This document shows, one piece after another, positions 1 to 36,562 of a stretch of DNA of 64,000 nt (the stretch's first letter is position 1; the number at the start of each line of letters is the position of its first letter). Location of the stretch: assembly GCA_018064755.1 (NCBI GenBank), contig JAGHUP010000009.1:5701-69700 (forward strand), in the 5' to 3' direction. Both the position numbers and the translations under genes were made by a program. The stretch comes from Candidatus Crickella equi (GTDB lineage Bacteria > Bacillota > Clostridia > Peptostreptococcales > Anaerovoracaceae). Below the pieces are notes generated by a model. That model saw only the letters and a list, made by a program, of their open reading frames with translations. It was not told the DNA's origin and made no database searches.

Positions 1-566
1 ATGCCCTTACTCTCCAGCAGGTAAGCGATAGAGCGGTTTCTTGAGCAAGTCTTCATCTCGCTGTCGAACACATCCTCATTTAAAGTGATGTCCGGATCTG
101 AACAGATAGCTCTGGAGAATCTCAGCATATCCTGGAAGCTTACCTCAGGAAGCAGCAGTCCACAAATTGCCAGTGCGCCTGAATTAATAAGTGGATTGTA
201 AGGTCTTGAATCATTGAGGTCGAGTTCAACAAGTGAGTTAAAAGCTTCGCCTGATGGTTCAGCACCGACTTTATCAAACACCTTTTCAACGCCACAGATC
301 TCAAGAGCTACTATCAGCATAATGATCTTGGATACAGACTGCATTGTAAATCTTACATTGTAATCACCAATGCAGATTTTCTCGCCTGCTAGAGGATACA
401 GACAGATACCGAGCTGGTCAGGATTAACCTTACCGAGCTCAGGAATATATGTTGCAACAGCGCCATGAGGAATCTTCTTTCTAGCCTCTTCCATAGCCGC
501 TTCCACAATTTCCTTAGTCTTGTCTGCGGTTTGAAGTTCATAACTTCTATCAATTGTATCAGTCAT
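1..566 (-). CDS. glsA: glutaminase A, N-terminal ~188 codons (gene runs off the window start)
   Basis: Absent from the ORF track because it is open to the window edge. Reverse-strand translation from the ATG at 566-564 reads MTDTIDRSYELQ..GAVATYIPELGKVNPDQLGI..QSVSKII..EPSGEAFNSLVELD..NPLINSGAL, the conserved glutaminase core pattern. Confidence 0.85.
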   Translation of the reverse strand, partial: MTDTIDRSYELQTADKTKEIVEAAMEEARKKIPHGAVATYIPELGKVNPDQLGICLYPLAGEKICIGDYNVRFTMQSVSKIIMLIVALEICGVEKVFDKVGAEPSGEAFNSLVELDLNDSRPYNPLINSGALAICGLLLPEVSFQDMLRFSRAICSDPDITLNEDVFDSEMKTCSRNRSIAYLLESKG

Positions 567-608
567 AAATGTTACCTTCTATATATAAAAATGTTTCTTG
601 ATATCTAA

Positions 609-641
609 TAAAAAGACTCGCCAACATAAGTCAGCGAGTCT
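609..641 (-). terminator. rho-independent terminator after the NifX/SlyD-like gene
   Basis: Reverse strand: AGACTCGC-12 nt loop-GCGAGTCT followed by TTTTTA. Confidence 0.6.
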
Positions 642-698
642 AATAATACTCTTTTTTAAAGAAATTGTCAAAATTTTGTATTATTGTATACAATTTAT

Positions 699-1556
699 CT
701 AAATTTCTGCAATTTCTACCATCTCAATTTCGAATGTAAGATTCTTTCCTACCAACGGATGATTAGTATCGAATGTAATCTTATCCTCGGTCTTATCGAG
801 AACCAGTGCCTGAACCGGCTGTCCAAGAGCATTAGTCAGAACAACCTGATCTGCAATCTTAAGATCCTCTGAGCCTGGCAACTGAGCAATCTCGATTTCG
901 AATACAGCGTCTGGATTCCTAACGCCATATGCTTCCTGTGGTGGAATTGTAACAGTAACACGCTCTCCAACTTCAAGGTTAGCACATGCTTTGTCAAATC
1001 CAGGAATCATCATTCCAATACCACAGATGAACTCAAGTGGTTCGCCACGGTCATAAGATGAATCGAACTGTGATCCATCATCAAGAGTTCCCTTATAGTG
1101 AACCTTGATTGACTTACCAACGTTAGCGCCTTCCATCATTGGACCACCACCGCAGCCACCTGCGCAACCTGCACATCCGCCGCCACAGTTAGATCCGCAA
1201 CCGCCTTCGGCTTCGTGCTCATGGTCATGATGATCGCAGTTTACGCCTGCGCTCTGCAGTTCGCCTCTTAAGTATGTCATAACAGCTACATCTGTGTCTC
1301 CTTCTGCTCCAGAGAACACCTGAATACCAGCCTGTCCAAGAGCATCAGCAGCACCGGAACCACATCCGCCACAGATGAGTACATCAACTTTCTGATCTGC
1401 AAGCAATCCTGCGAGTGCCTCATGTCCTGTACCATTAGTATTTACAACCTCAGCAGACTTTACTTCACCATCTTCAACGTTGTAAATCTTGAAATTCTCT
1501 GTATGTCCGAAATGCTGGAATACATTTCCATCTTCGTAAGTAACTGCAATCTTCAT
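699..1556 (-). CDS. fusion protein: NifX/NifB-type cofactor-binding domain, His/Cys/Gly-rich linker, FKBP-type peptidyl-prolyl isomerase (SlyD-like)
   Basis: The N-terminus MKIAVTYEDGNVFQHFGHTENFKIY..VDVLICGGCG matches the NifX/NifB C-terminal family pattern. The linker is DHHDHEHEAEGGCGSNCGGGCAGCAGGCGGG. The C-terminus VHYKGTLDDGSQFDSSYDRGEPLEF..IPGFD plus an insert-in-flap region is SlyD-like. Confidence 0.75.
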   Translation of the reverse strand: MKIAVTYEDGNVFQHFGHTENFKIYNVEDGEVKSAEVVNTNGTGHEALAGLLADQKVDVLICGGCGSGAADALGQAGIQVFSGAEGDTDVAVMTYLRGELQSAGVNCDHHDHEHEAEGGCGSNCGGGCAGCAGGCGGGPMMEGANVGKSIKVHYKGTLDDGSQFDSSYDRGEPLEFICGIGMMIPGFDKACANLEVGERVTVTIPPQEAYGVRNPDAVFEIEIAQLPGSEDLKIADQVVLTNALGQPVQALVLDKTEDKITFDTNHPLVGKNLTFEIEMVEIAEI

Positions 1557-1571
1557 TAAATATCTCCTTTT

Positions 1572-2063
1572 CTACTTTCTCCAGCCGAGCTGTTCTATGT
1601 AAGGTTCTAACGAACGTCTAAGTATCTGGCCGAATAAACCAGCAGCAATCAATTCACCTACGAAAACTGTAACGGTGAAATACGCTACCGAGCCTTCGAA
1701 GTTGTACACCAAGGCCAAAACCCACGGTATTATCAGCGTGTTTGCGATAATCGGTGGCAAGCTTGCGAGGACTTTGTGGTTAGCAAGACGCTTTGTTAGA
1801 AGCGCGCCAACAAGTGTAGCTACTGTTCCACAAATAACATCCATCGGTGCACAACCTGTAATAATGTTAGAAACAAGACATCCAACACACAATCCAGGAA
1901 CTGCAGCAGGTGTAAATATAGGCAATATCGTCATTGCTTCAGATAATCTAATCTGTATTATTCCACTTGCAAGACCCAGCAGGTTGGATACCAGTGTTAG
2001 CACAATATAAAGCGCAGCAATAAGTGCTCCCTGCGCAATATTATTTGTTCTATTATTCATCAT
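1572..2063 (-). CDS. queT: queuosine precursor transporter QueT
   Basis: 163-aa multi-TM protein with QueT-like sequence (IQIRLSEAMTILPIF..), sitting directly behind a preQ1 riboswitch. Confidence 0.8.
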   Translation of the reverse strand: MMNNRTNNIAQGALIAALYIVLTLVSNLLGLASGIIQIRLSEAMTILPIFTPAAVPGLCVGCLVSNIITGCAPMDVICGTVATLVGALLTKRLANHKVLASLPPIIANTLIIPWVLALVYNFEGSVAYFTVTVFVGELIAAGLFGQILRRSLEPYIEQLGWRK

Positions 2064-2065
2064 AG

Positions 2066-2107
2066 CTCCTTAGTTTTGTTTTACGTGAGGATGGTTACGA
2101 ACTCACG
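2066..2107 (-). promoter_or_regulatory. preQ1-I riboswitch sequestering the queT Shine-Dalgarno
   Basis: Reverse strand CGUGAG-UUCGUAACCAUC-CUCACG-UAAAACAAAACUAAGGAG. This is a P1 hairpin plus an A-rich tail ending in CUAAGG, very close to the Bacillus/Thermoanaerobacter preQ1-I aptamers recalled from the literature. Confidence 0.8.
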
Positions 2108-2115
2108 AAATTAGT

Positions 2116-2207
2116 TGGCGGAGAGAGGGGGATTTGAACCCCCGCGACGGTATTACCGCCCTACCGGTATTCGAAGCCGGACCCTTCAGCCACTTGGGTA
2201 CCTCTCC
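2116..2207 (-). tRNA. tRNA-Ser (anticodon CGA)
   Basis: Reverse strand GGAGAGG..CCGGC-TTCGAAT-ACCGG..long variable arm..GGGGGTTCAAATCCCCC-TCTCTCC-G-CCA. Cloverleaf with long extra arm and encoded CCA. Confidence 0.9.
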
Positions 2208-2238
2208 ATATTGACGCCGTCAAGATTGACGGCGAGTT

Positions 2239-3588
2239 TTATTGTAGCATATTATTGCTTCTTTCTCTAGCCCTCTTCTCACGAAGTGCTGCAAGTCTCT
2301 TCTCGCGTTGTTTCCTATTATATCTGCGTATCAGCATCAGCGCTGTGGCAAGAACCACAATTGTCATTACAAGAATAATTCCAACCTTGTCTGAAATATA
2401 GATATTAGACAGAATCATACCTGTCTGAACATCCTCAGCCAGCATCACATTACGCTTAGCAACTAACTTCCTGCTGACATAGACCTCATAAGTTCCAACC
2501 TTGGTGCCCTTCTTAAGAGGAGCCTTGACCTTGTCATAGTGAATCTTTACCCTGACTTTGCCCTTTCGCATTTTCTTAGGATAAGCGTGGACTCTTTTCT
2601 CAAGGATGGTCTTTACATGAGTATGCTTTCCGTGTTTAACCCACACTTTACCGGTATCTGCTCCAGCTTCATCTACCACATATCCTGGTGTTACCTTGTG
2701 TGCAAATTTGAGTAAGTTCTCTACGTCTTCTTCTCTGCCTTCGTCAGTATCTTTCAGCAAGATTAGAATAGCAGTAAGTTCATTCTTATTATATTCAAGA
2801 GCTACTGAGCAATCGCTTGTACTCCAGAATCCACTCTTGCCGCCGAGCACTCCGGATTTCTTTTTGTCGGTCAGAGTGATATGAGTCTTCATCTTACGTG
2901 CCTCGAACTTGTTAGTTTTAGGCATTTTGTACTTTCTTGTAGTCGCAATCTTATGAAGATACTCATCATCGAACACATGCTGTGTAATAGTCAGAAGATC
3001 GTTAGCCGTCGTATAGTGATCAGCTGCCTTCCATCCTGTCGGATTAACAAAATGAGTATTCTTACAGCCCCAGTCAGCGACTGTGTCGTTCATTTCATCT
3101 ACGAAGGCGTCAATATCTCCATCGCAAGTGGCTTCAGCTAGAGCTGTTGCTGCATCATTACCAGACAATATCATAGCTCCATGGAGAAGTTGATCTACAG
3201 TTACCTTCTCCCCTGGGACCAACTTCATAGTTGAACCCTCGGAACTATCATTGGCAGCCCTCTTGGATATCACAACCACTTCATCCTTATCCAACTCCTG
3301 TGTAGCAACATAACAAGTTACTAGCTTGGTAATACTATATGGTGCATACTGAGTATCTGCATTTTTGCTGTATACAACCTGGTCGAGGTCCTCTGAATAG
3401 AGAACAGCAGCCTTAGCTCTAATATCCGGAGCTTTCGCATTTATATCACCACAAGGTATCATTTCTCCCTTGTGACCTGAAGTAAAGATAATAAAAAGTA
3501 GCACTATAATAAGGAGCAACCCTATAATGATTGCCCTCATCTTTATTCTGTTAGACTTCTTGTAATTACTTTCCTTACTTCTTGCCAT
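2239..3588 (-). CDS. D-alanyl-D-alanine carboxypeptidase (PBP5/6-type serine peptidase) with C-terminal membrane anchor
   Basis: SITK (SxxK), SGN and KSG motifs, N-terminal TM segment, C-terminal TM plus basic tail. Confidence 0.8.
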   Translation of the reverse strand: MARSKESNYKKSNRIKMRAIIIGLLLIIVLLFIIFTSGHKGEMIPCGDINAKAPDIRAKAAVLYSEDLDQVVYSKNADTQYAPYSITKLVTCYVATQELDKDEVVVISKRAANDSSEGSTMKLVPGEKVTVDQLLHGAMILSGNDAATALAEATCDGDIDAFVDEMNDTVADWGCKNTHFVNPTGWKAADHYTTANDLLTITQHVFDDEYLHKIATTRKYKMPKTNKFEARKMKTHITLTDKKKSGVLGGKSGFWSTSDCSVALEYNKNELTAILILLKDTDEGREEDVENLLKFAHKVTPGYVVDEAGADTGKVWVKHGKHTHVKTILEKRVHAYPKKMRKGKVRVKIHYDKVKAPLKKGTKVGTYEVYVSRKLVAKRNVMLAEDVQTGMILSNIYISDKVGIILVMTIVVLATALMLIRRYNRKQREKRLAALREKRARERSNNMLQ

Positions 3589-4535
3589 TAGAGATATACC
3601 ACGTTAATTGCATCTTTAATTACTTCAATTGTCAGTTTTCCAGTCTCAAACATTTCGCCATCTCCAACGTACTTCATTTTTCCGTTGTTAGGTTCAATCT
3701 CAATTTTCTTAGCCTGACGATATTTGTAGAGCTTGCCGCCCTGGTCGTCGATATCGAAGATTTTTCCGCCCTTATATTTAGGTACCATTGAAACGAATTT
3801 TGCTCTGGATATATTATTTACAACCAACAGCTCCAGCAGCCCATCGCTGAGGTCGGCTCTAGGACAGCTCTCAAATCCACCACCGCAGAATCCACCATTA
3901 CCAACTGTTGTGAGCAGCAGTGGTCCATCATGAACAAGCTCTCCATCAGCAGTAATCTTAAGGTCCTCGCCTTTCTTAAGTGCCAGGCACTGTGTTACTG
4001 CCAAGATATATGAACCTGTTCCGGATACACCTGGAAGAGTCTTAAGCTCATGAGCTCTGATACAAGCATTTCCATCAAATCCAATATTGATGCCGTTATC
4101 GCAGATATGGCTAACGTCCTTGCCATTCTCTTCCCAAGTCATCTTGATTAAGTCAATCTTCTTAACAGGAGCATCGATGTGTGCGGAAAGATTTTTGTAC
4201 TTCACACCTTCATTAAGACCACCACCGAGAGCTCTGGCAAAGTCATTACCACTTCCTACAGGAACAACTGCAAGCACTGCATTGTTGTGTCCATAAACAC
4301 CATTAACAACCTCATGAATAGTTCCGTCTCCGCCACATGCGAATACAGTAACCTTGTCTTCGGTTTCTTTTAGAATCTGATCAGCCAGAACAGTAGCGTC
4401 CTTCTCTCCTCTTGTATAGTAAATCTTAATATCCTTATCCGGATGCGCTTTCATCAACTGTTCGATGCGAGGCACGAGCTCTTTCTTATTCTTGCCCTGT
4501 CCAGATGCTGGATTAACGATAAATACATACTTCAT
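3588..4535 (-). CDS. diacylglycerol/lipid kinase family protein (YegS/DagK-like)
   Basis: NPASGQGK start and the ACGGDGT catalytic-domain motif. Confidence 0.8.
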   Translation of the reverse strand: MKYVFIVNPASGQGKNKKELVPRIEQLMKAHPDKDIKIYYTRGEKDATVLADQILKETEDKVTVFACGGDGTIHEVVNGVYGHNNAVLAVVPVGSGNDFARALGGGLNEGVKYKNLSAHIDAPVKKIDLIKMTWEENGKDVSHICDNGINIGFDGNACIRAHELKTLPGVSGTGSYILAVTQCLALKKGEDLKITADGELVHDGPLLLTTVGNGGFCGGGFESCPRADLSDGLLELLVVNNISRAKFVSMVPKYKGGKIFDIDDQGGKLYKYRQAKKIEIEPNNGKMKYVGDGEMFETGKLTIEVIKDAINVVYL

Positions 4536-4547
4536 TAATTTGCTCCT

Positions 4548-5273
4548 TTATAGATAACCACCATTGCTGTCATAGATTGCCTTAGGTATGCAACCCAGAT
4601 AATCCAGTGATACTAATTTGTATTGAATGCCTCTGTGCAAACCCTTGATTCCTGCTCCAAATGCTACCGGTCCATGCAGATGTCCGTATACGCATAACTT
4701 CACGCCGTAGTCCTCGAGTAATGCGGTAAGCTCTGTTGATTTGCCCGAGATATCGCTTGGTGGATAATGAAGTGCTACGACCAAATCGGCATCTGGTGCG
4801 AGTGACTTAGCGGCGTCAAGGCCGAGTTTTAATCTCTGCAGCTCGCGACGGTATATCTTCTCATCGTGCTCGCTATACTCATCTGAGCCAGGATAAGGCC
4901 AACCTCTTGTTGCACATACGACAATATTCTCCGACTCCACATAGTAGCAATCGTTCTGGAGGAATACGACGTCATCGTACAGTGAATTCAGATAATTGAT
5001 GCGACTCCACCACAGATCATGATTGCCTTTGGAAATCAGCTTGGTACCCGGCAGTTCATGGATCCACTTGATGTCGGTCAACGCCTCTTCAAGACGAAGT
5101 CCCCAAGAAATGTCCCCAGGTATCAGCACAATATCTTCATCAGATACTCGCTCAATCCAGGCAGCCTTAAGACGTTCCACGTGGTTCTCCCAACCAACGC
5201 CGAACATATCCATAGGCTTATCCACGCGTTCATCAAACGCGAGATGTAAATCTGCAATTGCGAATATCTTCAT
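4548..5273 (-). CDS. metallophosphoesterase
   Basis: IADLHL, GDISW, GNHD and GHLH calcineurin-like motifs. Confidence 0.75.
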   Translation of the reverse strand: MKIFAIADLHLAFDERVDKPMDMFGVGWENHVERLKAAWIERVSDEDIVLIPGDISWGLRLEEALTDIKWIHELPGTKLISKGNHDLWWSRINYLNSLYDDVVFLQNDCYYVESENIVVCATRGWPYPGSDEYSEHDEKIYRRELQRLKLGLDAAKSLAPDADLVVALHYPPSDISGKSTELTALLEDYGVKLCVYGHLHGPVAFGAGIKGLHRGIQYKLVSLDYLGCIPKAIYDSNGGYL

Positions 5274-5281
5274 TCTTTCCT

Positions 5282-6391
5282 CTACTTCAGCAAATTATCT
5301 ATTGGGCTTTCCGGCTCATCGAGAACCATAACATCCCTGAGTTTGCGATTAATCGCATTAGTTCTTGTTGTCTCGAGCTTCTCGAGTTCCTGATCCGCGA
5401 GGCGGATTTTGTCACGAGCCTTGTCGAGAACATCGGCAAAGTTAGCAAATTCCTTCTTAACCTCAGCCAGAGTCTTCCATACCTCGCTGGACTTCTTCTC
5501 AATAGCCAGAGTATTGAATCCCATCTGAAGGCTGTTAAGGAGCGCCGCCATTGTAGTTGGACCGGCGATTGTAACTTTGTATTCTCTCTGAAGTTCCTCT
5601 ACCATTCCCATATTAACGGCCTCAGCATAGAGTCCTTCGAATGGCAGGAACATGATACCAAAATCTGTTGTATCAGGCGGCGCGATATACTTGGTCTGAA
5701 TATCCTTGGCTTCTGTTTTGAGACGAGTTCTAAGTGCTGTCTTGGCCTTGGCAATCAGGTCCTTGTCAGCTGTCTCATATGCATCCATTACAGCTGCATA
5801 AGCCTCTCCCGGGAACTTAGAGTCGATAGGAAGATAAACGATATCCTCTCCATCTCCTGGAAGTCTGATAGCAAACTCAACGCGATTGGTGCTTCCCTTA
5901 ACAGTAGCAACATTCTCGTCATACTGTTCGTGATTCAGTATCTGTTCAAGAATGGCAGCAAGCTGAACCTCACCCAGAATTCCACGAGTCTTAACATTGG
6001 ACAGAATCTTCTTCAGATCTCCAACGCTACCAGCAACTGACTGCATCTCGCCGAGGCTCTTGTATACCTCGCCCAATTTGTCGTCCAAAGTCTGGCGCAT
6101 TGTGTCCATCTGAGTGTTATTCTCATTTCTCATGCGGGCAAAACTCTCTTCGAGAGCCTTGAGTCTTGTATCCTGAGCATCACTCATTGCCTTCTGGTTG
6201 GTCGCAACAAGGTCGCCATAAGCCTTGAAGTATGAGTCCAGCTTGGCATTGTTCTGATCAAGCTTACTTGACTGCTGCTCCATCTTAGTAAGAGCATACT
6301 TGGTGCGTGCCAATGACAGCAGTCCAATTAACAGTGTTGCCAGCAGAACAACTCCGCCTACTATTACGATGATAAGTGTTGTCTTATCCAT
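5282..6391 (-). CDS. rmuC: DNA recombination protein RmuC
   Basis: N-terminal TM, coiled coil, RmuC-domain pattern (..FAIRLPGD..YLPIDSKFP..MFLPFEGLY..). Confidence 0.8.
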   Translation of the reverse strand: MDKTTLIIVIVGGVVLLATLLIGLLSLARTKYALTKMEQQSSKLDQNNAKLDSYFKAYGDLVATNQKAMSDAQDTRLKALEESFARMRNENNTQMDTMRQTLDDKLGEVYKSLGEMQSVAGSVGDLKKILSNVKTRGILGEVQLAAILEQILNHEQYDENVATVKGSTNRVEFAIRLPGDGEDIVYLPIDSKFPGEAYAAVMDAYETADKDLIAKAKTALRTRLKTEAKDIQTKYIAPPDTTDFGIMFLPFEGLYAEAVNMGMVEELQREYKVTIAGPTTMAALLNSLQMGFNTLAIEKKSSEVWKTLAEVKKEFANFADVLDKARDKIRLADQELEKLETTRTNAINRKLRDVMVLDEPESPIDNLLK

Positions 6392-6401
6392 AAATCTCCT
6401 C

Positions 6402-7136
6402 TTAGTTCAGTTTGTCATCTACGAATTTGAAAATTGCATCGGTATTCTCGAGAACAATCTGAGTGAATCCATCCTTGTTGACCAGATATCTTGCCAGCTT
6501 GCCCTGCTGCAGATCAGCAAGGTCATTTGCAAGAATGTAATCCATATCGTTCTTATTGCACAGAGCTGTTGCAACATCGAAGAGTTCACCCTTCTCTACA
6601 TTATCCAGAAGTTTGCAGCCAATCAGCAGAGTCTTAGGATACCAGAATCTCAGCTTGCTGATAATCTTAGTAGTCAGTCCCAGCTTAACTGTCAGGTTCT
6701 TCTGATAGCTTGAGATCTTGCTGGAGTTATCAATCTTGCATTTAGGGTCTTCCATGATTCTAAGGATGTCCTCAGCACTCTTAATCTTAGGCAGAGCCTT
6801 ATAAATCTCATCTGCCATATCTTCCAGCAGGAAAGTGAAATCTCCCTTATAATCGCCAACAGCAGCCGCATGGATGATAGCATCGGTATCATCTAATCTA
6901 GCCTCATTCTCCAGCGCTGCGAGCATATCTTCGGTATTCTCAACGCGAACAATTCTTAAGTTGTCGCGTGGCTCCATCTTAACCATATTGTTCAGGATGG
7001 CTACCACTTCATATCCATGGCTAGCAAAAGTCTCAGCAAGAGCCACGCTAGTACCTCCTGTTGACATATTAGTAATCTTCATGACCTCATCGATTCTCTC
7101 GTTGGTAGGTCCCCCTGTGATGATAATCTTCTTCAT
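6402..7136 (-). CDS. coaB: phosphopantothenate--cysteine ligase (CoaB-type)
   Basis: MKKIIITGGPTNERIDEVMKITNMSTGG resembles stand-alone streptococcal-type CoaB. Confidence 0.7.
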   Translation of the reverse strand: MKKIIITGGPTNERIDEVMKITNMSTGGTSVALAETFASHGYEVVAILNNMVKMEPRDNLRIVRVENTEDMLAALENEARLDDTDAIIHAAAVGDYKGDFTFLLEDMADEIYKALPKIKSAEDILRIMEDPKCKIDNSSKISSYQKNLTVKLGLTTKIISKLRFWYPKTLLIGCKLLDNVEKGELFDVATALCNKNDMDYILANDLADLQQGKLARYLVNKDGFTQIVLENTDAIFKFVDDKLN

Positions 7137-30604: not shown

Positions 30605-31339
30605 TCAGTTATTCTTTTCTTCAGACTTCTTTTTAACAAGAGCATCCACAACTTCCTTTATATTGGATTGGTTTACTACAACGTCAGGATAAGTCTCTTC
30701 GAATTCTATCAACGCCTGCTTGTTATCAATTTCCTGTTGTCTGATTTCCTTATACTTGTCTACATAGTCTTCTTTCTCGAAAAGGTCCGTAACAAACCCG
30801 CGCATCTCCTTTGATATATAATCCCAATCACCATATAGATTTTCGGTCGCTTGTTTAACCCCTTCAAGCGTCAGTGGTTTTCCTGACAATTTATGCTCCG
30901 CTAACACACCAACAATATCCGAAAGATCATTCTTATATTTTCTTCCTGATACCAGTTTCATAGCAACCAGGTATTCCGCCTTAACCGTATATACTGAAAC
31001 AACGTTAGCGAAAGTCTTGTAATGCATAGCATATTGCCTGAGTTTTGGTGTATATGATGTAGTATTTTTAAAATGTGTATTGAGCCACTCCAATGGCAGC
31101 CCATATTTATCTCCTACGTAATTTATAGATTCCTTCATCGCCGATGAAACCTCATACATAGCATCAATGTCTGTCGTCATCTGACGAAAATCGTAGTTCA
31201 ACAATACTGATGCACCGCCTATCAATATAAGTTCAGCCTTGACCTTCTTGCCCGTTCTTTTTCTAAAATCCTTGGCAACTTCCTTAATGTAGGTGTCTAT
31301 ATTCTCTCTCGTAAATTCAAATGTAATGCTAGATGACAT
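30605..31339 (-). CDS. DUF6036/MNT-like nucleotidyltransferase-fold protein
   Basis: ELILIGGASVLLNYDFRQMTTDIDAMY fits the Pol-beta NTase hG[GS]..D.D signature. 11-nt overlap with the upstream XRE gene. Confidence 0.6.
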   Translation of the reverse strand: MSSSITFEFTRENIDTYIKEVAKDFRKRTGKKVKAELILIGGASVLLNYDFRQMTTDIDAMYEVSSAMKESINYVGDKYGLPLEWLNTHFKNTTSYTPKLRQYAMHYKTFANVVSVYTVKAEYLVAMKLVSGRKYKNDLSDIVGVLAEHKLSGKPLTLEGVKQATENLYGDWDYISKEMRGFVTDLFEKEDYVDKYKEIRQQEIDNKQALIEFEETYPDVVVNQSNIKEVVDALVKKKSEEKNN

Positions 31340-31889
31340 TTCCTATCTCCGTCTCAACAATATTGAATCTTAAAAACTCCGGTATTGCTTTCTTAATTGC
31401 TTCCTGTTTAGCCTTCTCAGTACCCAATGCAATCACTCCAGCAGGGAATACCATATGCTCAATTTTGCTCTTTCTCATTGCATCATAATCATTGCAAAGA
31501 GGTATCTTATTCTGCCGACTTAAGTAATCTATCAATGCCAATAAATACAGCGCCTCCAAATACCATTGCCACTGCCACATTGTGCGAATTATTTCATTCT
31601 GAATGGTACTCAATATAAATTCATAGCTACCCTCACGTTGAAGGTCGTGTTGCATCTGGCTCTTAAAGTTCTCGAATGATGGTCTCTCCGGTATATGCAT
31701 CTTGGAATACAGTTCATCCATTGAAATATCCAGCACACTCGCCAACTTATGTGCCGTCTCAAAAGACGCCTTCTCAATTGCCGTCTTTCCATTCACAATG
31801 TCAGAAAGTGTCGAATATGGAATGCCGCTTCTCTTGGAGCATTCATATATTGTGAGATTCTTTTCTTCGAGCAGGAAACTGTAATTCAT
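31329..31889 (-). CDS. XRE-family HTH regulator with uncharacterised C-terminal domain
   Basis: LTIYECSKRSGIPYSTLSDIVNGKT HTH. Start taken at the third codon of the track ORF (ATG 31889) because GGAGGA then lies 7 nt upstream. Confidence 0.75.
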   Translation of the reverse strand: MNYSFLLEEKNLTIYECSKRSGIPYSTLSDIVNGKTAIEKASFETAHKLASVLDISMDELYSKMHIPERPSFENFKSQMQHDLQREGSYEFILSTIQNEIIRTMWQWQWYLEALYLLALIDYLSRQNKIPLCNDYDAMRKSKIEHMVFPAGVIALGTEKAKQEAIKKAIPEFLRFNIVETEIGNVI

Positions 31890-31919
31890 ATTCATTCCTC
31901 CGTTATGTCATGTAACTAC

Positions 31920-31955: not shown

Positions 31956-33257
31956 CTATATACTCTTAAGATAATTAACTGTCTTGCGAATCCATTCGCA
32001 GCCATATTTCAGTCTATATCCGGTAAATCCCGCATCCACCAATGCGGCATAGATCTCATCGTCTGAAATACCAAGATTCAATATTCTAGCGAATGACACT
32101 CCGGTATTCGTAATGTCATTAACGTAGTCATAATATGTTCCGCTCGCACCCCAAGTCGTGGAGTACAGCTCTATATTATCGCACGCCTTCCTTGCCGTTT
32201 CCTCCGTGTCCTCATAGAATAGGCTACGGCCGTTATCATATAACGGATAGAAAGTCTCGCCTGTGGCATTTAACAATACCGCAACATTGGACAGATGCCT
32301 GTCATCCTGTCGGGTTATGAAGTCTAGAGCAATCATTTTGATAAAATCCAGCTGATACTGCGGTCTCTTGCTGAGCAGATTGTAATACTCATTCTCGCCT
32401 CTTTCTCCGTCCATGAACAGGCGACGAGCATGAACCAGGTATTCTTGACCCCAATCATACATAAATTCAGAGAAAACAGTATCCTCATCAATGCGATAAG
32501 CCGGGCAACAAGGTACTCCGAGCAACTTCGCGATGTTGTAAACAGCGACCTCTGATTCAACATCTCCGGATAACGGATGGAGTCTTGTTTTGTAAATGCC
32601 GTATCTGCCATTAAACACGCCATATCGCTTGATATTATTACCTTCCGGCGTGCTGATACTATCCCCCTCAAGGTCGGTCTTCTGAACAAACACCGCCCTG
32701 AACACCTCATCTATTGCATCGTCCATCTTGGCATCAGAACTATCTGCAATCCACAGTAAATCACGAGAATTGATAGCGTGTGTCTTAATGCCTATTCCAA
32801 TCGCATCATACGAATTAAGTCCGCACTTCACCAAAATCTTCTCTATATCACGTCGTTCACTGCTGACAATTCGTTCAGAAACGAATCTCTCGAAATCCGC
32901 TCTGCTCCAGCGACGTTCCCCATGCGTGTAGTTTGATACAGTTTGGTTATAATCCGGATTGCGCCATAACACATCGTAATTATCGTAGATGTCTCCTATC
33001 ACATCGTCCTGCCACTTCAGGTAATACTTAACCTGATCCGTTCCGTATTGAATATCCACAGACTCAGCAACAGCCAACTTATCAAGCCGCGCAGTCTTGT
33101 ACCTGCCATCAGCTGGTTTAACCGCATCACAAGGGATGAGGTAGGTGTCATTGCTACTGATAACCCCCTCAATTCGACCCGACTTGCACAAAGTCCTGAC
33201 ACGACGATCGCTAATATTCCATTTCTCAGCCATCTCGGCCGTAGTACAATATTTCAT
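31956..33257 (-). CDS. HipA-family Ser/Thr kinase with N-terminal excisionase/MerR-like HTH (YjjJ/HipH-like architecture)
   Basis: N-terminus TTAEMAEKWNISDRRVRTLCKSGRIEG (HTH). C-terminus FITRQDDRHLSNVAVL and PLYDNGRSL match the HipA catalytic D.H..N loop and the Mg-binding YD. No HipA N-terminal coupling domain is recognisable. Confidence 0.65.
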   Translation of the reverse strand: MKYCTTAEMAEKWNISDRRVRTLCKSGRIEGVISSNDTYLIPCDAVKPADGRYKTARLDKLAVAESVDIQYGTDQVKYYLKWQDDVIGDIYDNYDVLWRNPDYNQTVSNYTHGERRWSRADFERFVSERIVSSERRDIEKILVKCGLNSYDAIGIGIKTHAINSRDLLWIADSSDAKMDDAIDEVFRAVFVQKTDLEGDSISTPEGNNIKRYGVFNGRYGIYKTRLHPLSGDVESEVAVYNIAKLLGVPCCPAYRIDEDTVFSEFMYDWGQEYLVHARRLFMDGERGENEYYNLLSKRPQYQLDFIKMIALDFITRQDDRHLSNVAVLLNATGETFYPLYDNGRSLFYEDTEETARKACDNIELYSTTWGASGTYYDYVNDITNTGVSFARILNLGISDDEIYAALVDAGFTGYRLKYGCEWIRKTVNYLKSI

Positions 33258-33306: not shown

Positions 33307-33736
33307 CATTATTCCGCATAATTTATCGACAGTCAAGTTATAGTAGGGTTGAGAACGCTAAAACACAACTTCATTGAGGACCAAGATTAGGTTTTGTCGC
33401 TATGTGACGACTCACGCCCAAAGTACATGCTTTTTCAGCTCGCCACTCCTGCGATTTGTCGCTATGCCGACCCCTCGCGCCAAAAAACCATCATCAATTC
33501 CGGGCAAACTACCGGAATCAGTGATGTACTTTTATTACATGATTCTATATAGCGACAAAAGTCGCGTTCGCTCTCGATAAAAATAATGCACTTTTCTCAC
33601 CTCTACTCGTATAGCGATACAACACAATAAGCAAAGAACGGAATTACCCTAAAAATTACGAGGAACCGGCGAACCGACTCCTTGCAGAATTAATAAATCT
33701 TCTTATACCAATTAAACGTATCTGTTTTGTAAAAAA

Positions 33737-34612
33737 CTATATACCGCTACAAATTTCATTAAATAAATCTTTTCCCGTCAGCAGTTCCTTTAGAGACGAT
33801 TTGTCTAAAACAGCAACATGTTTCTCCTGTAGAAACAATTTAGTCTCTTTTGTCTCATATGTTGAATCAACTATAAGCACAAAGTATAACCCTTTATTTT
33901 CAATATGATCTATTTCATTAATGAAGTTTACTACATCACTTTTATTTATATATCTTCCCGAATAATGTCTAATTTTAATAAGATATTTTACTCCATCTTT
34001 CTCTGCCAATATTGTATCCTCATTTTCTTTTTTTGTTAAATATCCCAAATCATTTAATAGCATGATATAAAAATCTCCTATATCAGCTATATTACAAATA
34101 TCAGTCACCAGATTCGAAAGATTATCAAACGGCACTTTTATCACGGCCGTATATTTTGACAGATTCGAATTGTTATCCAACACCATATCGAAACCTATAA
34201 ATATACCCCTGACAATGTTAAAACGACCATGCGCAATACAATTCCTTAAGTGTCGTAAAAACTCTTGTATTGTTATTCTTTTCTTTGATTTCGAAAAAAC
34301 AAGCTTCGTACAATTCAAGCATATTTCTTCTTCATAAAACTCAACATCATTTTTTGATAAGCCAGCGCTATCTGTAACAATCTTTACGTCATCTTCAGTA
34401 ACAGACAGCTTTTCCATAAGAAGTTTCATCAAATAGTCGCTATATGTATCTATGGAAAAAATAGTATTGCAATTTGCCTGTATTGAATGTGTTTCAGGCA
34501 GTCTCCACAAACAATTTAGGAGCAAGTTATTTGTTTCATTGTCAAAGCAACCGTCATGAAAAATGTTATATTCATATTTGTTTGGATTTTTACAGCAATA
34601 CTGAAAACTCAT
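33737..34612 (-). CDS. HEPN-like (RNxxAH) domain fused to a Mrr-type restriction-endonuclease-like C-terminal domain
   Basis: EFLRHLRNCIAHGRF is an Rx4H HEPN-type motif as in the AbiD/F (Abi_2) family. The C-terminus YLIKIRHYSGRYINKSDVVNFINEI..GLYFVLIVDSTY..HVAVLDKSSLKELL follows the Mrr_cat layout but has K-I-R where Q/E-x-K is expected. Very AT-rich gene. Start placed at MSFQYCC (GGAGGGG SD) instead of the track's TTG start at 34642. Confidence 0.5.
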   Translation of the reverse strand: MSFQYCCKNPNKYEYNIFHDGCFDNETNNLLLNCLWRLPETHSIQANCNTIFSIDTYSDYLMKLLMEKLSVTEDDVKIVTDSAGLSKNDVEFYEEEICLNCTKLVFSKSKKRITIQEFLRHLRNCIAHGRFNIVRGIFIGFDMVLDNNSNLSKYTAVIKVPFDNLSNLVTDICNIADIGDFYIMLLNDLGYLTKKENEDTILAEKDGVKYLIKIRHYSGRYINKSDVVNFINEIDHIENKGLYFVLIVDSTYETKETKLFLQEKHVAVLDKSSLKELLTGKDLFNEICSGI

Positions 34613-34807
34613 TTTAACCCATCCCCTCCGTTTCCTGAACAATGACGTATAATACTATATAGCAAAACTCGTAAATTGTTATTCATAAATAGCTCCATAA
34701 GTTAATTTGGAATAATTCCAGCAGCCCCCAACATTCGCCCCCAAATTAATTTGGATAAACCCCAAAATTATTTGATGAGCCATTTTCCTTTCCTTCGCCG
34801 AATAGCC

Positions 34808-34836
34808 AAAGACAGGGCCATCACAGCCCTGTCCTT
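34808..34836 (-). terminator. probable terminator after the surface-protein gene
   Basis: Reverse strand AAGGACAGGGC-7 nt-GCCCTGTCTTT followed by a short T-poor tail. Confidence 0.45.
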
Positions 34837-34891
34837 GATTGGTTTGATATGATAATCACCTTGCGATGATTAATGACTCACATTGGTTAAA

Positions 34892-36562
34892 TTACTTCTT
34901 AACCTTTACAGTGATGCTCTGAGTCTCGGATGCAGCACCATAGCCCAATCCAGCCTGAACATAAGCCTTAACCTTGATCTTGTAAGTTCCCTTCTTCAGA
35001 CCCTTCTTAAGAGTGATCTTTCCGGAAGCCTTATCAATCTTAATCTTGCTGTTAGCGTTGATCAGCTTGTAGCTTACTGCAGCGCCTGAGAGAGCCTCAG
35101 CCTTAACTGTGAAGGACTTAGCAGCCTTCTTAAGCTTCTTTGCCTTGAAAGTCTTGCTGGATGGAGCTGATGTGAACTCAACTTCATTTACAAGCTTTCC
35201 ATCAACAATGTGAAGGGTAGCATCAGCGTTGTCAAGTTCAACAGTTACATTTGCTTCAAGAGCTTTCCACTTTTTAGCGAGAGCTGCTGTCTCTTCAGAA
35301 GTTAAATCGCTCTTAATTGCAATAGCAAGATTTACATCATCAGTGTATGCTACAGGGGTAGCTGTTACGTCGTAGTTATCGGAAATGTATTCTGCAACCT
35401 CTGCCTTATGAGCATCGATAAACGCCTGAACTTTCTTGTCTGGGTTTGTGGCCTTTACAAAATCCATTGCTGTATAAGCCTGTCCTCTTACTACCTTTGG
35501 AGCATCAGATTCAAATCCGAATGTAACTACTGCCTTATTTACGTCTACTGTCAGAATATAAGGTGTAGGTGTCTGCTTATCAGCAGATACTGTAGCTTCA
35601 AACTTATAAGGCTCAGTAGGCTTATTCACAGTCTGGAACTTAGGTGCATCAACAGCCTCATATTTTCCAGCCTTGTAATTATACTGCTTCCAAGTTACTG
35701 ACAGACCCTCGAGTTCCTTCATAACGATTGTGTGCTCAGAGCCATCAAATGTAACCTGACTGTCCTTTCCTTCTTTCATTACATCGTCAATTGATGTAAC
35801 AGCATCAACCCAGAACAAAGCTTCGTTTGTCTTTGGAACCGACTTAGCAACTGTGAAATTCTTTGATACAGATCCAACGAGATCAGGCTGGTCTTTGTCT
35901 CCAAGATCAATAGCCTTCTTTGCAGCGAAAATTACTGGAACTGTGAATTCCTGCTCTGCATAAGAAGCGTCATCATAATCTTCAGGAAGTGTAAGACTGA
36001 AGTTCCAATTATCAATAGTATTTTTTGCACCATGACCGTAATTAGCACTTACCCTTACAATTTTGTTATTAGTGATAGTCTTATCCTGCTCAACATAAGA
36101 TGGAGCAACTAACTCTAATCCAGTATAGGCATATGTACCGCTCGCAAAGATACCTTTAAAGTCACTCTTGTTAAACTTTGTTGGCATAGCTGATGTGTTC
36201 TTCAGCTCACTTTGTAACACTTCACCGCCATACTGAAGCGTAGCACCATCTACGTCATAAAAATATGCCTTCAGGCTCTCCATTGCAGCCTTGACGTTTG
36301 AATCCATAGTAGTATCTGCTGCAATTTCAGCTGCATTAGGAACAGCCTGGATAGTACCATTCCACTTTGTGTTGTCACCTGTTTTTGTAACCAGTGTTCT
36401 AACAGTATTAACTGTAGCTGATTCAGTACCAACAGTTACAGTAACTGTTGCATACTTCTCGCCCCATGTTACAACAGGCTCAGCTGTTGCGAATGCCATT
36501 GCTGGCATGAATGTTACCATCATCATTGCAGACATGAGGATAGCAAATAATTTCTTGCGCAT
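34892..36562 (-). CDS. secreted protein with C-terminal bacterial Ig-like (Big_2-like) domain
   Basis: Signal peptide MRKKLFAILMSAMMMVTFMPAMAFA. C-terminus ..AVSYKLINANSKIKIDKASGKITLKKGLKKGTYKIKVKAYV is a typical Big_2 pattern. The remainder is not recognised. Confidence 0.5.
   Translation of the reverse strand: MRKKLFAILMSAMMMVTFMPAMAFATAEPVVTWGEKYATVTVTVGTESATVNTVRTLVTKTGDNTKWNGTIQAVPNAAEIAADTTMDSNVKAAMESLKAYFYDVDGATLQYGGEVLQSELKNTSAMPTKFNKSDFKGIFASGTYAYTGLELVAPSYVEQDKTITNNKIVRVSANYGHGAKNTIDNWNFSLTLPEDYDDASYAEQEFTVPVIFAAKKAIDLGDKDQPDLVGSVSKNFTVAKSVPKTNEALFWVDAVTSIDDVMKEGKDSQVTFDGSEHTIVMKELEGLSVTWKQYNYKAGKYEAVDAPKFQTVNKPTEPYKFEATVSADKQTPTPYILTVDVNKAVVTFGFESDAPKVVRGQAYTAMDFVKATNPDKKVQAFIDAHKAEVAEYISDNYDVTATPVAYTDDVNLAIAIKSDLTSEETAALAKKWKALEANVTVELDNADATLHIVDGKLVNEVEFTSAPSSKTFKAKKLKKAAKSFTVKAEALSGAAVSYKLINANSKIKIDKASGKITLKKGLKKGTYKIKVKAYVQAGLGYGAASETQSITVKVKK

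Follow-up and report, generated by a model that had tools for sequence, protein, structure and literature searches.

An intact gene of foreign base composition

The stretch of DNA analyzed here, 64,000 nucleotides of contig JAGHUP010000009.1 from a metagenome-assembled genome of Candidatus Crickella equi (Anaerovoracaceae, Peptostreptococcales) and referred to below as the window, carries at positions 33737..34612 of the minus strand a complete gene for a protein of 291 residues (plus stop codon), in which an RNxxAH motif of the HEPN type precedes a C-terminal domain of the Mrr type. An exact-match look-up identifies the protein as MBQ0041181.1, annotated as 'hypothetical protein'. A longer open reading frame (33737..34642, same strand) opens at a TTG, and an ATG at 34612 gives the product of 291 residues, beginning with MSFQYCC. 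We place the start at this ATG because the homologues share the same N-terminus (MxFxxCC) and because a GGAGG sequence (34625-34629, minus strand) lies 12 nt 5' of it; the resulting protein aligns over its full length with 67 homologues. This span is exactly that of the original prediction, which had been made from the DNA letters and a list of their open reading frames.

The gene has a GC content of 30.6% (28% at third codon positions), whereas the window as a whole has 44.4% and the neighbor genes have 38-50%; this bears out the AT-richness remarked on in that prediction. A promoter-like site, ATAACA-17-TATAGT (34654..34682, minus strand), is found ~40 nt upstream of the ATG; it is a consensus match only, and such sites are no more numerous in the region than expected from shuffling. 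A terminator-like hairpin occurs ~55 nt past the stop codon (33661..33682, minus strand). With promoter-like and terminator-like sites of its own, the gene looks monocistronic. Judged by its foreign base composition, this intact gene is a predicted horizontal acquisition from a low-GC donor.

On the 5' side of the promoter-like site, at 34699-34764, two direct repeats of ~22 nt (AAGTTAATTTGGAATAATTCCA and AAATTAATTTGGATAAACCCCA) double as an inverted pair (AAGTTAATTTGG and CCAAATTAATTT) and could represent an operator or be left over from recombination.

A C-terminal domain of the Mrr_cat type and its altered active site

Searched on its own, the protein gives only HEPN pEK499_p136 in Pfam, at 17.9 bits for a cutoff of 26.6, no Pfam Mrr_cat match at E<=1, and nothing significant in PADLOC, in NCBIfam or, with phmmer, among PDB sequences. 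Since such single-sequence searches are uninformative, family-level profiles were needed. A word-indexed search of 5.8 billion proteins yielded three relatives with 40-44% identity, and when 1.84 billion cluster representatives were scanned exhaustively with HMMER, 107 matches were obtained, 86 of them below 1e-10; the family amounts to ~100 clusters at 50% identity. Most of the 107 matches are full length (290-310 residues), suggesting that the whole two-module architecture is conserved. The family alignment used below contains 68 sequences, the target protein and 67 homologues, with a mean column identity of 27%.

The C-terminal domain covers residues 178-291 (33740..34081, minus strand). 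In an AlphaFold2 (AF2) model of the full-length protein (predicted local distance difference test score, pLDDT, 95.4; predicted template modeling score, pTM, 0.90), Foldseek matches AF1548 (PDB 1Y88) with a root-mean-square deviation (rmsd) of 2.8 over 103 aligned columns and a probability of 1.0. Further Foldseek matches are MspJI, AspBHI, Card1/Can2, Cdn1, NucS/EndoMS, HamA, and FokI. The same AF1548 structure is found by the family profile among PDB sequences (E=0.003), and the family consensus matches Pfam Mrr_cat (PF04471) with 48.2 bits, covering positions 10-115 of the 115 in the profile, the cutoff being 21. Three members, P0112, P0059, and P0145, exceed this cutoff individually (37.3, 31.1, and 26.6 bits); individual Mrr_cat matches occur in 11 of the 68 members (best E=3e-8), and others match Hjc or PDDEXK families. 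Foldseek and the AF2 secondary-structure order both give the alpha-beta-beta-beta-alpha-beta core of PD-(D/E)xK nucleases. The C-terminal domain of the target protein has a Mrr_cat-type PD-(D/E)xK fold, as the original prediction had read from the order of its elements, and the protein itself can be assigned to Mrr_cat by transitive homology of sequence.

The core fold and the element order are shared with the Mrr_cat enzymes AF1548, Mrr, MspJI, and AspBHI, and most members of the family are also canonical at the active site: the triad D-x12-(E/D)-x-K is complete in 51 of the 68, and the domain probably cuts DNA in these members. The D...(E/Q/D)-x-K triad of the Mrr_cat and PD-(D/E)xK nucleases is not found in the target protein, which differs from Mrr-type enzymes in having an aspartate shifted by one position followed by K-x-R, without the helix-1 glutamate. 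The segment concerned, D199...K213-I-R215 (33968..34018, minus strand), was compared column by column with the family consensus. At the helix-1 position (column 179), Glu is present in 41/68 members and is replaced by Gly in the target protein and by Thr, Val, and Val in its three closest relatives. The Asp is found in 60/67 members, each time with a spacing of 13 residues to the acidic position, whereas the spacing is 14 for D199 and for the Asp of the three relatives. The acidic position itself (column 213; Glu or Asp in 58/68) is Lys in the target protein and Val, Tyr, and Tyr in the relatives, and the Lys position (column 215; Lys in 58/68) is Arg in the target protein and Lys, Arg, and Lys in the relatives. 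The non-canonical triad that had been suspected from LIKIRHY, residues 211-217 of the C-terminal domain, is therefore real and set against a mostly canonical family.

The target protein and its three closest relatives are monophyletic in a neighbor-joining tree. This sub-clade of four is sister to the canonical member P0005 and nested in a clade of eight that is already without the helix-1 Glu, which indicates that the degeneration of the restriction endonuclease (REase) site is derived and stepwise. The loss of the REase site is derived and confined to this four-member sub-clade. Its C/N identity ratio is 1.05, compared to 0.66-0.75 in canonical members, so that within the sub-clade the C-domain matches the N-module in conservation, indicating that the C-domain is not decaying. 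From these sequence comparisons, the most economical reading is that the C-domain of the sub-clade probably keeps a non-catalytic role.

The same conservation can be read in another way, namely that the C-domain is still catalytic through relocated residues and that the protein cuts both RNA and DNA. Indeed, in the sub-clade, whose C-domain shows strong conservation, D180 (beside the lost E179), H216 (beside R/K215), D226, and E233 are invariant, none of them being conserved elsewhere in the family, and active-site migration is established in the PD-(D/E)xK superfamily, in which some enzymes draw their acidic residue from a neighboring helix. Nevertheless, the helix-1 Glu is lost, the Asp is shifted, the acidic residue is changed to Lys, Val, Tyr, and Tyr, and the Lys is changed to Arg in two of the four sequences, all together, and the variability of the acidic position within the sub-clade argues against a new, fixed catalytic arrangement. 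We consider such a rewired deoxyribonuclease (DNase) unlikely, and a C-domain without catalysis in the sub-clade the better reading.

A PD-(D/E)xK fold without catalytic residues beside another effector is also seen in NA-iREase1 (PF22722), the NACHT-associated inactive restriction endonuclease, which the family consensus approaches (25.7 bits for a cutoff of 27) and the target protein alone does not match. The partner of NA-iREase1 is a STAND NTPase, whereas the partner module in the target protein is HEPN-like.

The N-terminal module and its HEPN-like motif

The N-terminal module, residues 1-177 (34082..34612, minus strand), is alpha+beta and modeled with a pLDDT of 95.4 and a pTM of 0.91. 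Seven strands accompany its four main helices (25-36, 55-68, 114-127, 162-176). The pTM suggests that the Cys-rich N-terminus and the HEPN-like segment form one compact module. The original prediction had left the Cys-rich N-terminal ~110 residues unrecognised; they are still unmatched, and they now appear joined to the HEPN-like segment.

The motif announced for the middle of the protein is present in EFLRHLRNCIAHGRF, residues 117-131, in which R123 and H128 form the Rx4H dyad (R123-N-C-I-A-H128; 34229..34246, minus strand) at the C-terminal end of helix 114-127. These two residues are the sole invariant columns of the alignment (68/68 sequences). The residues around them are nearly as constant, with N124 in 66/68, A127 in 67/68, and G129 and F131 conserved in at least 97% and at least 95%, respectively, so that on sequence statistics the RNxxAH motif appears to be beyond chance. 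HEPN motifs are of the form Rx4-6H, often with a polar residue after the Arg, as is the case here, and sit at the 'end of helix-3' (PMC3710099), ahead of helix-4. According to the AF2 secondary structure, the motif marks the end of helix 114-127, after which come a beta-hairpin and then helix 162-176; a motif at the end of a helix, followed by a beta-hairpin, is likewise described for HEPN and Csx1.

The segment made of helix-3, motif, beta-hairpin, and helix-4 (residues 111-171; 34100..34282, minus strand) is predicted to be homologous to HEPN of the pEK499_p136 type. PF18736 (HEPN pEK499_p136) is matched by 34 of the 68 members at E<0.01, RiboL-PSP-HEPN by five, and MAE_28990 HEPN by four. 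The family consensus scores 26.6 bits against PF18736, exactly the Pfam cutoff, over profile positions 45-147 of 152, compared to 168 bits for the prototype WP_000528932.1 of plasmid pEK499. When the family was aligned by hhalign with 50 genuine pEK499_p136 proteins, the probability was 86% (E=5e-6) over 54 columns, residues ~111-171; extending the alignment into residues 1-110, by greedy or global hhalign, gave low-confidence alignments only. The RNxxAH segment is thus probably homologous to pEK499_p136-type HEPN, a view that derives from sequence profiles and motif position and not from a fold match: the four helices of the module occur in HEPN order, but the module also has seven strands and no Foldseek match. 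The HEPN identity first proposed is accordingly supported by profiles and left without support by fold comparison.

An R-N-x-I-A-H motif, a hydrophobic beta-hairpin, and the helix are common to the prototype and the target family. The prototype, an E. coli plasmid protein annotated as 'HEPN family nuclease', is a single-domain protein of ~166 residues, whereas the target family has two modules and its first ~110 residues do not align to the prototype and carry a Cys/His cluster. The original prediction had likened the motif to the AbiD/AbiF style. An RNxxAH-style motif and a single-gene effector layout are indeed common to AbiD/AbiF (Abi_2) and the target, but neither the target protein nor any of the 68 members matches Abi_2 (PF07751), and the HEPN type appears to be pEK499_p136-like instead.

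The N-terminal 110 residues contain seven Cys, of which C6, C7, C98, and C101 are conserved in the family, together with H19. The first half of the putative zinc cluster, C6-C7...H19 (34556..34597, minus strand), is found in 60/65 (C6), 64/65 (C7), and 66/67 (H19) sequences. The second half is the C98-x-x-C101 knuckle (34310..34321, minus strand; C98 in 66/68, C101 in 65/68, and K103 in 65/68), which AF2 places in the turn between strands 96-98 and 103-107. From this conservation, C6/C7, H19, C98, and C101 may form a zinc site linking the N-terminus with the segment inserted after helix-2 and before helix-3. Further near-invariant polar residues of the module are S43, Q45, D75, K103, and K159.

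A layout with an N-terminal specificity module and a C-terminal Mrr_cat is also that of the type IV-like enzymes Mrr, MspJI, and AspBHI, two of which, MspJI and AspBHI, are among the top Foldseek matches. The N-module could then be a nucleic-acid reader, Mrr_cat the sole effector, and the window lineage dead or repurposed; existing annotations in the family, where they are not 'hypothetical protein', read 'restriction endonuclease', and the N-module has no HEPN fold match. The alignments to MspJI and AspBHI, however, show an rmsd of 18-21 Å and depend on the C-domain; the N-module gives no match to an SRA or winged-helix reader (Foldseek, hmmsearch against PDB sequences), and the target protein does not carry a Mrr-type winged-helix or SRA-like DNA reader. 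Without a reader match and with a degenerate triad, the target does not correspond to a type IV enzyme of the Mrr/MspJI type, which combines a reader with a competent Mrr_cat. The only invariant residues of the N-module are moreover the HEPN catalytic dyad. R123 and H128 are kept in all 17 of the 68 members in which the triad deviates, which suggests that the N-module has a function independent of DNA cleavage. A type IV-like enzyme is thus quite improbable, and a HEPN-like RNase module is the reading we retain.

Fusions of HEPN with REase domains have been described computationally, several of them independent (PMC3710099; Anantharaman et al. 2013). As predicted for the target family, this class (DUF4145-REase, the EC042_2821 wHTH-HEPN-REase-ZnR protein, MTES_1575) joins a HEPN RNase and a REase-fold DNase in one polypeptide and occurs in defense contexts, sometimes with zinc-binding elements, which are putative in the target family. 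The difference lies in the parts, here a pEK499_p136-like HEPN and a Mrr_cat REase, and in the small size of the target protein, which is without the helicase or winged helix-turn-helix of the described fusions. The EC042_2821 and DUF4145 models match no member of the family and MTES_1575 gives only a weak match, and the 2013 survey lists no REase fusion for the pEK499_p136 HEPN family (PMC3710099). We found no description of the present family in the literature on pEK499_p136, on HEPN with Mrr_cat, on HEPN-REase fusions, or on Shango. New here are the combination of a pEK499_p136-type HEPN segment with Mrr_cat, the Cys/His N-terminus without structural relative, and the dismantled yet conserved REase site of the sub-clade.

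Distribution, gene neighborhoods, and proposed function

The members found by profile search come chiefly from Anaerococcus, Peptoniphilus, and further Tissierellia, and the family has its center in Peptoniphilaceae. When 185,579 species genomes were scanned with a four-sequence alignment, 41 loci were obtained, all with at most 29% identity to the target protein and almost all from Anaerococcus or Peptoniphilus, the family being absent from most Bacillota. No close relative of the target protein was found in any isolate genome. One of the 41 loci belongs to a gut methanogenic archaeon, Candidatus Methanogranum, whose chromosome OY780938.1 carries a full-length member with 29% identity to the target protein (L011:7956-8918); as the family is otherwise confined to Bacillota, this suggests a bacteria-to-archaea transfer in the gut.

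We compared the neighborhoods of 46 family loci. The recurrent neighbors are all confined to Anaerococcus, where a Shango system (TerB/SngA, SngB, SngC) lies upstream on the same strand, with the family gene at its 3' end. In the L005 locus (1-6921), PADLOC recognizes SngB (1e-143) and SngC (2e-170), and a TerB protein stands as SngA. SngC is found within 8 kb upstream of the family gene in this locus and 22 more from Anaerococcus (e.g. L021, L031, L033, L040, L041, and L043) and directly adjoins the gene in seven loci, whereas in 12-15 loci genes for a transglutaminase, a 138-residue protein, and a Macro protein stand between the two. The Macro gene is directly upstream in 15 Anaerococcus/Peptoniphilus loci, and in L005 it ends 2 nt ahead of the ATG of the family gene. 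Genes of pEK499_p136-type HEPN have been reported to be associated with Macro-domain genes (PMC3710099), an association that recurs in these loci. The Shango link is absent from the window and from the loci outside Anaerococcus. We know of no nuclease effector or mechanism for Shango; as Shango is without a known nuclease effector, the family gene is a possible functional link.

A downstream gene present in 37-39 loci ('cluster 1'), whose product of ~370 residues looks membrane or low-complexity, was considered as a partner and rejected, being confined to Anaerococcus and unrelated to the downstream gene of the window. Outside Anaerococcus, the contexts vary. The gene is solitary among metabolic genes or, in one locus, lies near fragments of type I restriction-modification genes and an integrase. 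The sole prophage-borne member, P0028 (L003:6001-6930), is found between HNH and small-terminase genes and adjoins a ParB-N6 methyltransferase gene and a Dcm methyltransferase gene; it has Asn in place of the catalytic Asp, and a search of 50,697 phage genomes and of IMG/VR turned up no related gene. Across taxa, the 46 loci share no conserved partner gene, which argues for a stand-alone unit.

The single syntenic locus in ~37 Anaerococcus species, the lack of any antitoxin or partner found, and the absence from phage, plasmid, and viral-contig collections might instead point to a domesticated housekeeping or stress enzyme of RNA or DNA processing in Peptoniphilaceae, the copy in the window being a transferred passenger. 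However, the Anaerococcus locus is itself a defense island, with Shango followed by variable inserts, the contexts outside Anaerococcus are mutually unrelated and include a prophage, and the family is missing from most Bacillota. Degeneration of the REase site in 17/68 members would also be unusual for a core enzyme. We therefore give this housekeeping role little credence compared to a role in defense.

In the window, the gene belongs to a small accessory cluster flanked by genes for a glutamate dehydrogenase and a tyrosine recombinase. The neighbors are a helix-turn-helix (HTH) HipA-like kinase gene, an overlapping Xre/DUF6036 nucleotidyltransferase pair, a gene for a secreted protein of 556 residues, and the tyrosine recombinase gene; the first two, with the target, make up the cluster. 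The HTH_17/excisionase-like and HipA-like protein (31956-33257, minus strand) has 433 residues and a short, sub-threshold HipA_C match at residues ~298-352. It matches PADLOC PDC-M03A at 9e-11; a canonical HipA encoded at 42200-43462 matches the same PADLOC models, so these matches reflect the kinase core only, and the 433-residue protein may be an unusual HTH-kinase fusion. The pair at 30605-31895 (minus strand), an Xre-type HTH protein of 188 residues with a weak PADLOC PDC-M69A match and a DUF6036 nucleotidyltransferase of 244 residues, resembles a toxin-antitoxin or defense-candidate module. Immediately upstream of the target lies the gene of the 556-residue protein (34892-36562, minus strand), which begins with a signal-peptide-like sequence, matches no Pfam domain significantly, and is probably a surface protein; a hairpin at 34807-34837 marks the end of this gene.

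These neighbors invite the view that the target is the toxin of a local module run by the HipA-like kinase or by the Xre/DUF6036 pair. Both share the strand of the target and are found within 4 kb, and in HEPN-MNT systems nucleotidyltransferases of the MNT type neutralize HEPN toxins. However, the HipA-like and Xre/nucleotidyltransferase genes occur beside none of the 46 other family loci and were rejected as partners, and no nucleotidyltransferase gene is adjacent to the family gene in these loci, as it would be in a HEPN-MNT system. In the window, the DUF6036 gene is 2.4 kb from the target and overlaps its own Xre partner, and the target and the kinase gene are 479 nt apart, with a terminator-like hairpin in between. 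The strong GC difference between the target and both sets of neighbors also suggests that they did not arrive together. Such a module appears highly improbable in the light of these comparisons, and we keep to a gene that acts alone.

Between the target and the HipA-like gene, region 33392-33622 contains four copies of a ~40-60-nt unit with the core TTTGTCGCTAT(G/A)...AAAAGTACAT, two of them direct and two inverted, each pair being spaced 62 nt. An exact 11-mer of the unit occurs nowhere else in the window, and the fold of the region is more stable than that of its shuffled versions (z=-3.0). Candidates are a MITE-like (miniature inverted-repeat transposable element) remnant, a protein-binding array, or an RNA; in an Rfam scan of window positions 29-38 kb, the one match, to RAGATH-12, was below threshold.

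The reading we favor, with a probability of roughly 55%, is that the product is a two-module nuclease, acquired horizontally and acting alone, which consists of a HEPN-like RNase and a Mrr-type domain that is non-catalytic here and serves as a defense or toxin effector. In this protein, the N-terminal ~177 residues would be one compact module, probably stabilized by zinc, with R-N-x-x-A-H-G at its core. This HEPN-like module would be the catalytic RNase, activated, as in other HEPN enzymes, when two motifs meet in a dimer or oligomer. The C-domain would be a non-catalytic module for DNA binding, dimerization, or sensing that controls the RNase, giving a single-gene toxic effector of the abortive-infection type. 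Such a stand-alone effector would be in keeping with a gene that looks monocistronic, has no conserved partner, and occurs in defense-island contexts. A role in defense or genetic conflict is favored by the contexts, namely the Shango loci, the prophage, the fragments of restriction-modification genes, and, in the window, the HTH-HipA-like and Xre-nucleotidyltransferase genes.

Several observations weigh against this reading. The HEPN homology spans only ~60 residues at 86% probability, and on its own the target protein reaches the Pfam threshold for neither domain. The structure search on a predicted model that the original prediction had proposed as a check returned the PD-(D/E)xK fold for the C-domain, but for residues 1-177 Foldseek found neither a HEPN bundle nor any other neighbor (best E=0.37 in PDB; best E=0.02 at a probability of 0.18 in BFVD), and hmmsearch of the N-module profile against PDB sequences gave noise only. 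The degenerate sub-clade numbers only four sequences, and its four invariant residues named above could form a rewired active site. The synteny in Anaerococcus resembles vertical inheritance and not the patchy spread of defense genes. There is no match in PADLOC 2.0 or NCBIfam; PADLOC 2.0, queried with the target protein, the family consensus, and four members, gave weak motif-level matches only, to CARF_HEPN, RTasHEPN, and HEC-02B. At the sensitivity used, no members were found in phage (including PHROGs), plasmid, or IMG/VR collections. Nevertheless, each of the four alternatives discussed above is less consistent with the data than the two-module effector.

As a tentative and more doubtful extension, the dead Mrr-type domain might sense invader or damaged DNA and assemble or activate a zinc-bearing, novel HEPN-variant RNase whose N-module fold is absent from the PDB, and the whole family, with its canonical members, might be the missing nuclease arm of Shango in Anaerococcus.

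To our knowledge, almost none of the HEPN-REase fusions has been studied. They were predicted in 2013 to be effectors of conflict systems (PMC3710099). The present family is a natural experiment in a protein of ~300 residues, since most members have the HEPN dyad with an intact Mrr-type site and one sub-clade keeps the dyad with the DNase site dismantled. Comparing the canonical and degenerate forms could show how a restriction-type nuclease domain comes to regulate an RNase or to act as its sensor, and a structure of the N-module would reveal the true shape of the pEK499_p136-type 'HEPN'. The recurrent place of the gene at the end of Shango loci is a lead for a defense system of unknown mechanism.

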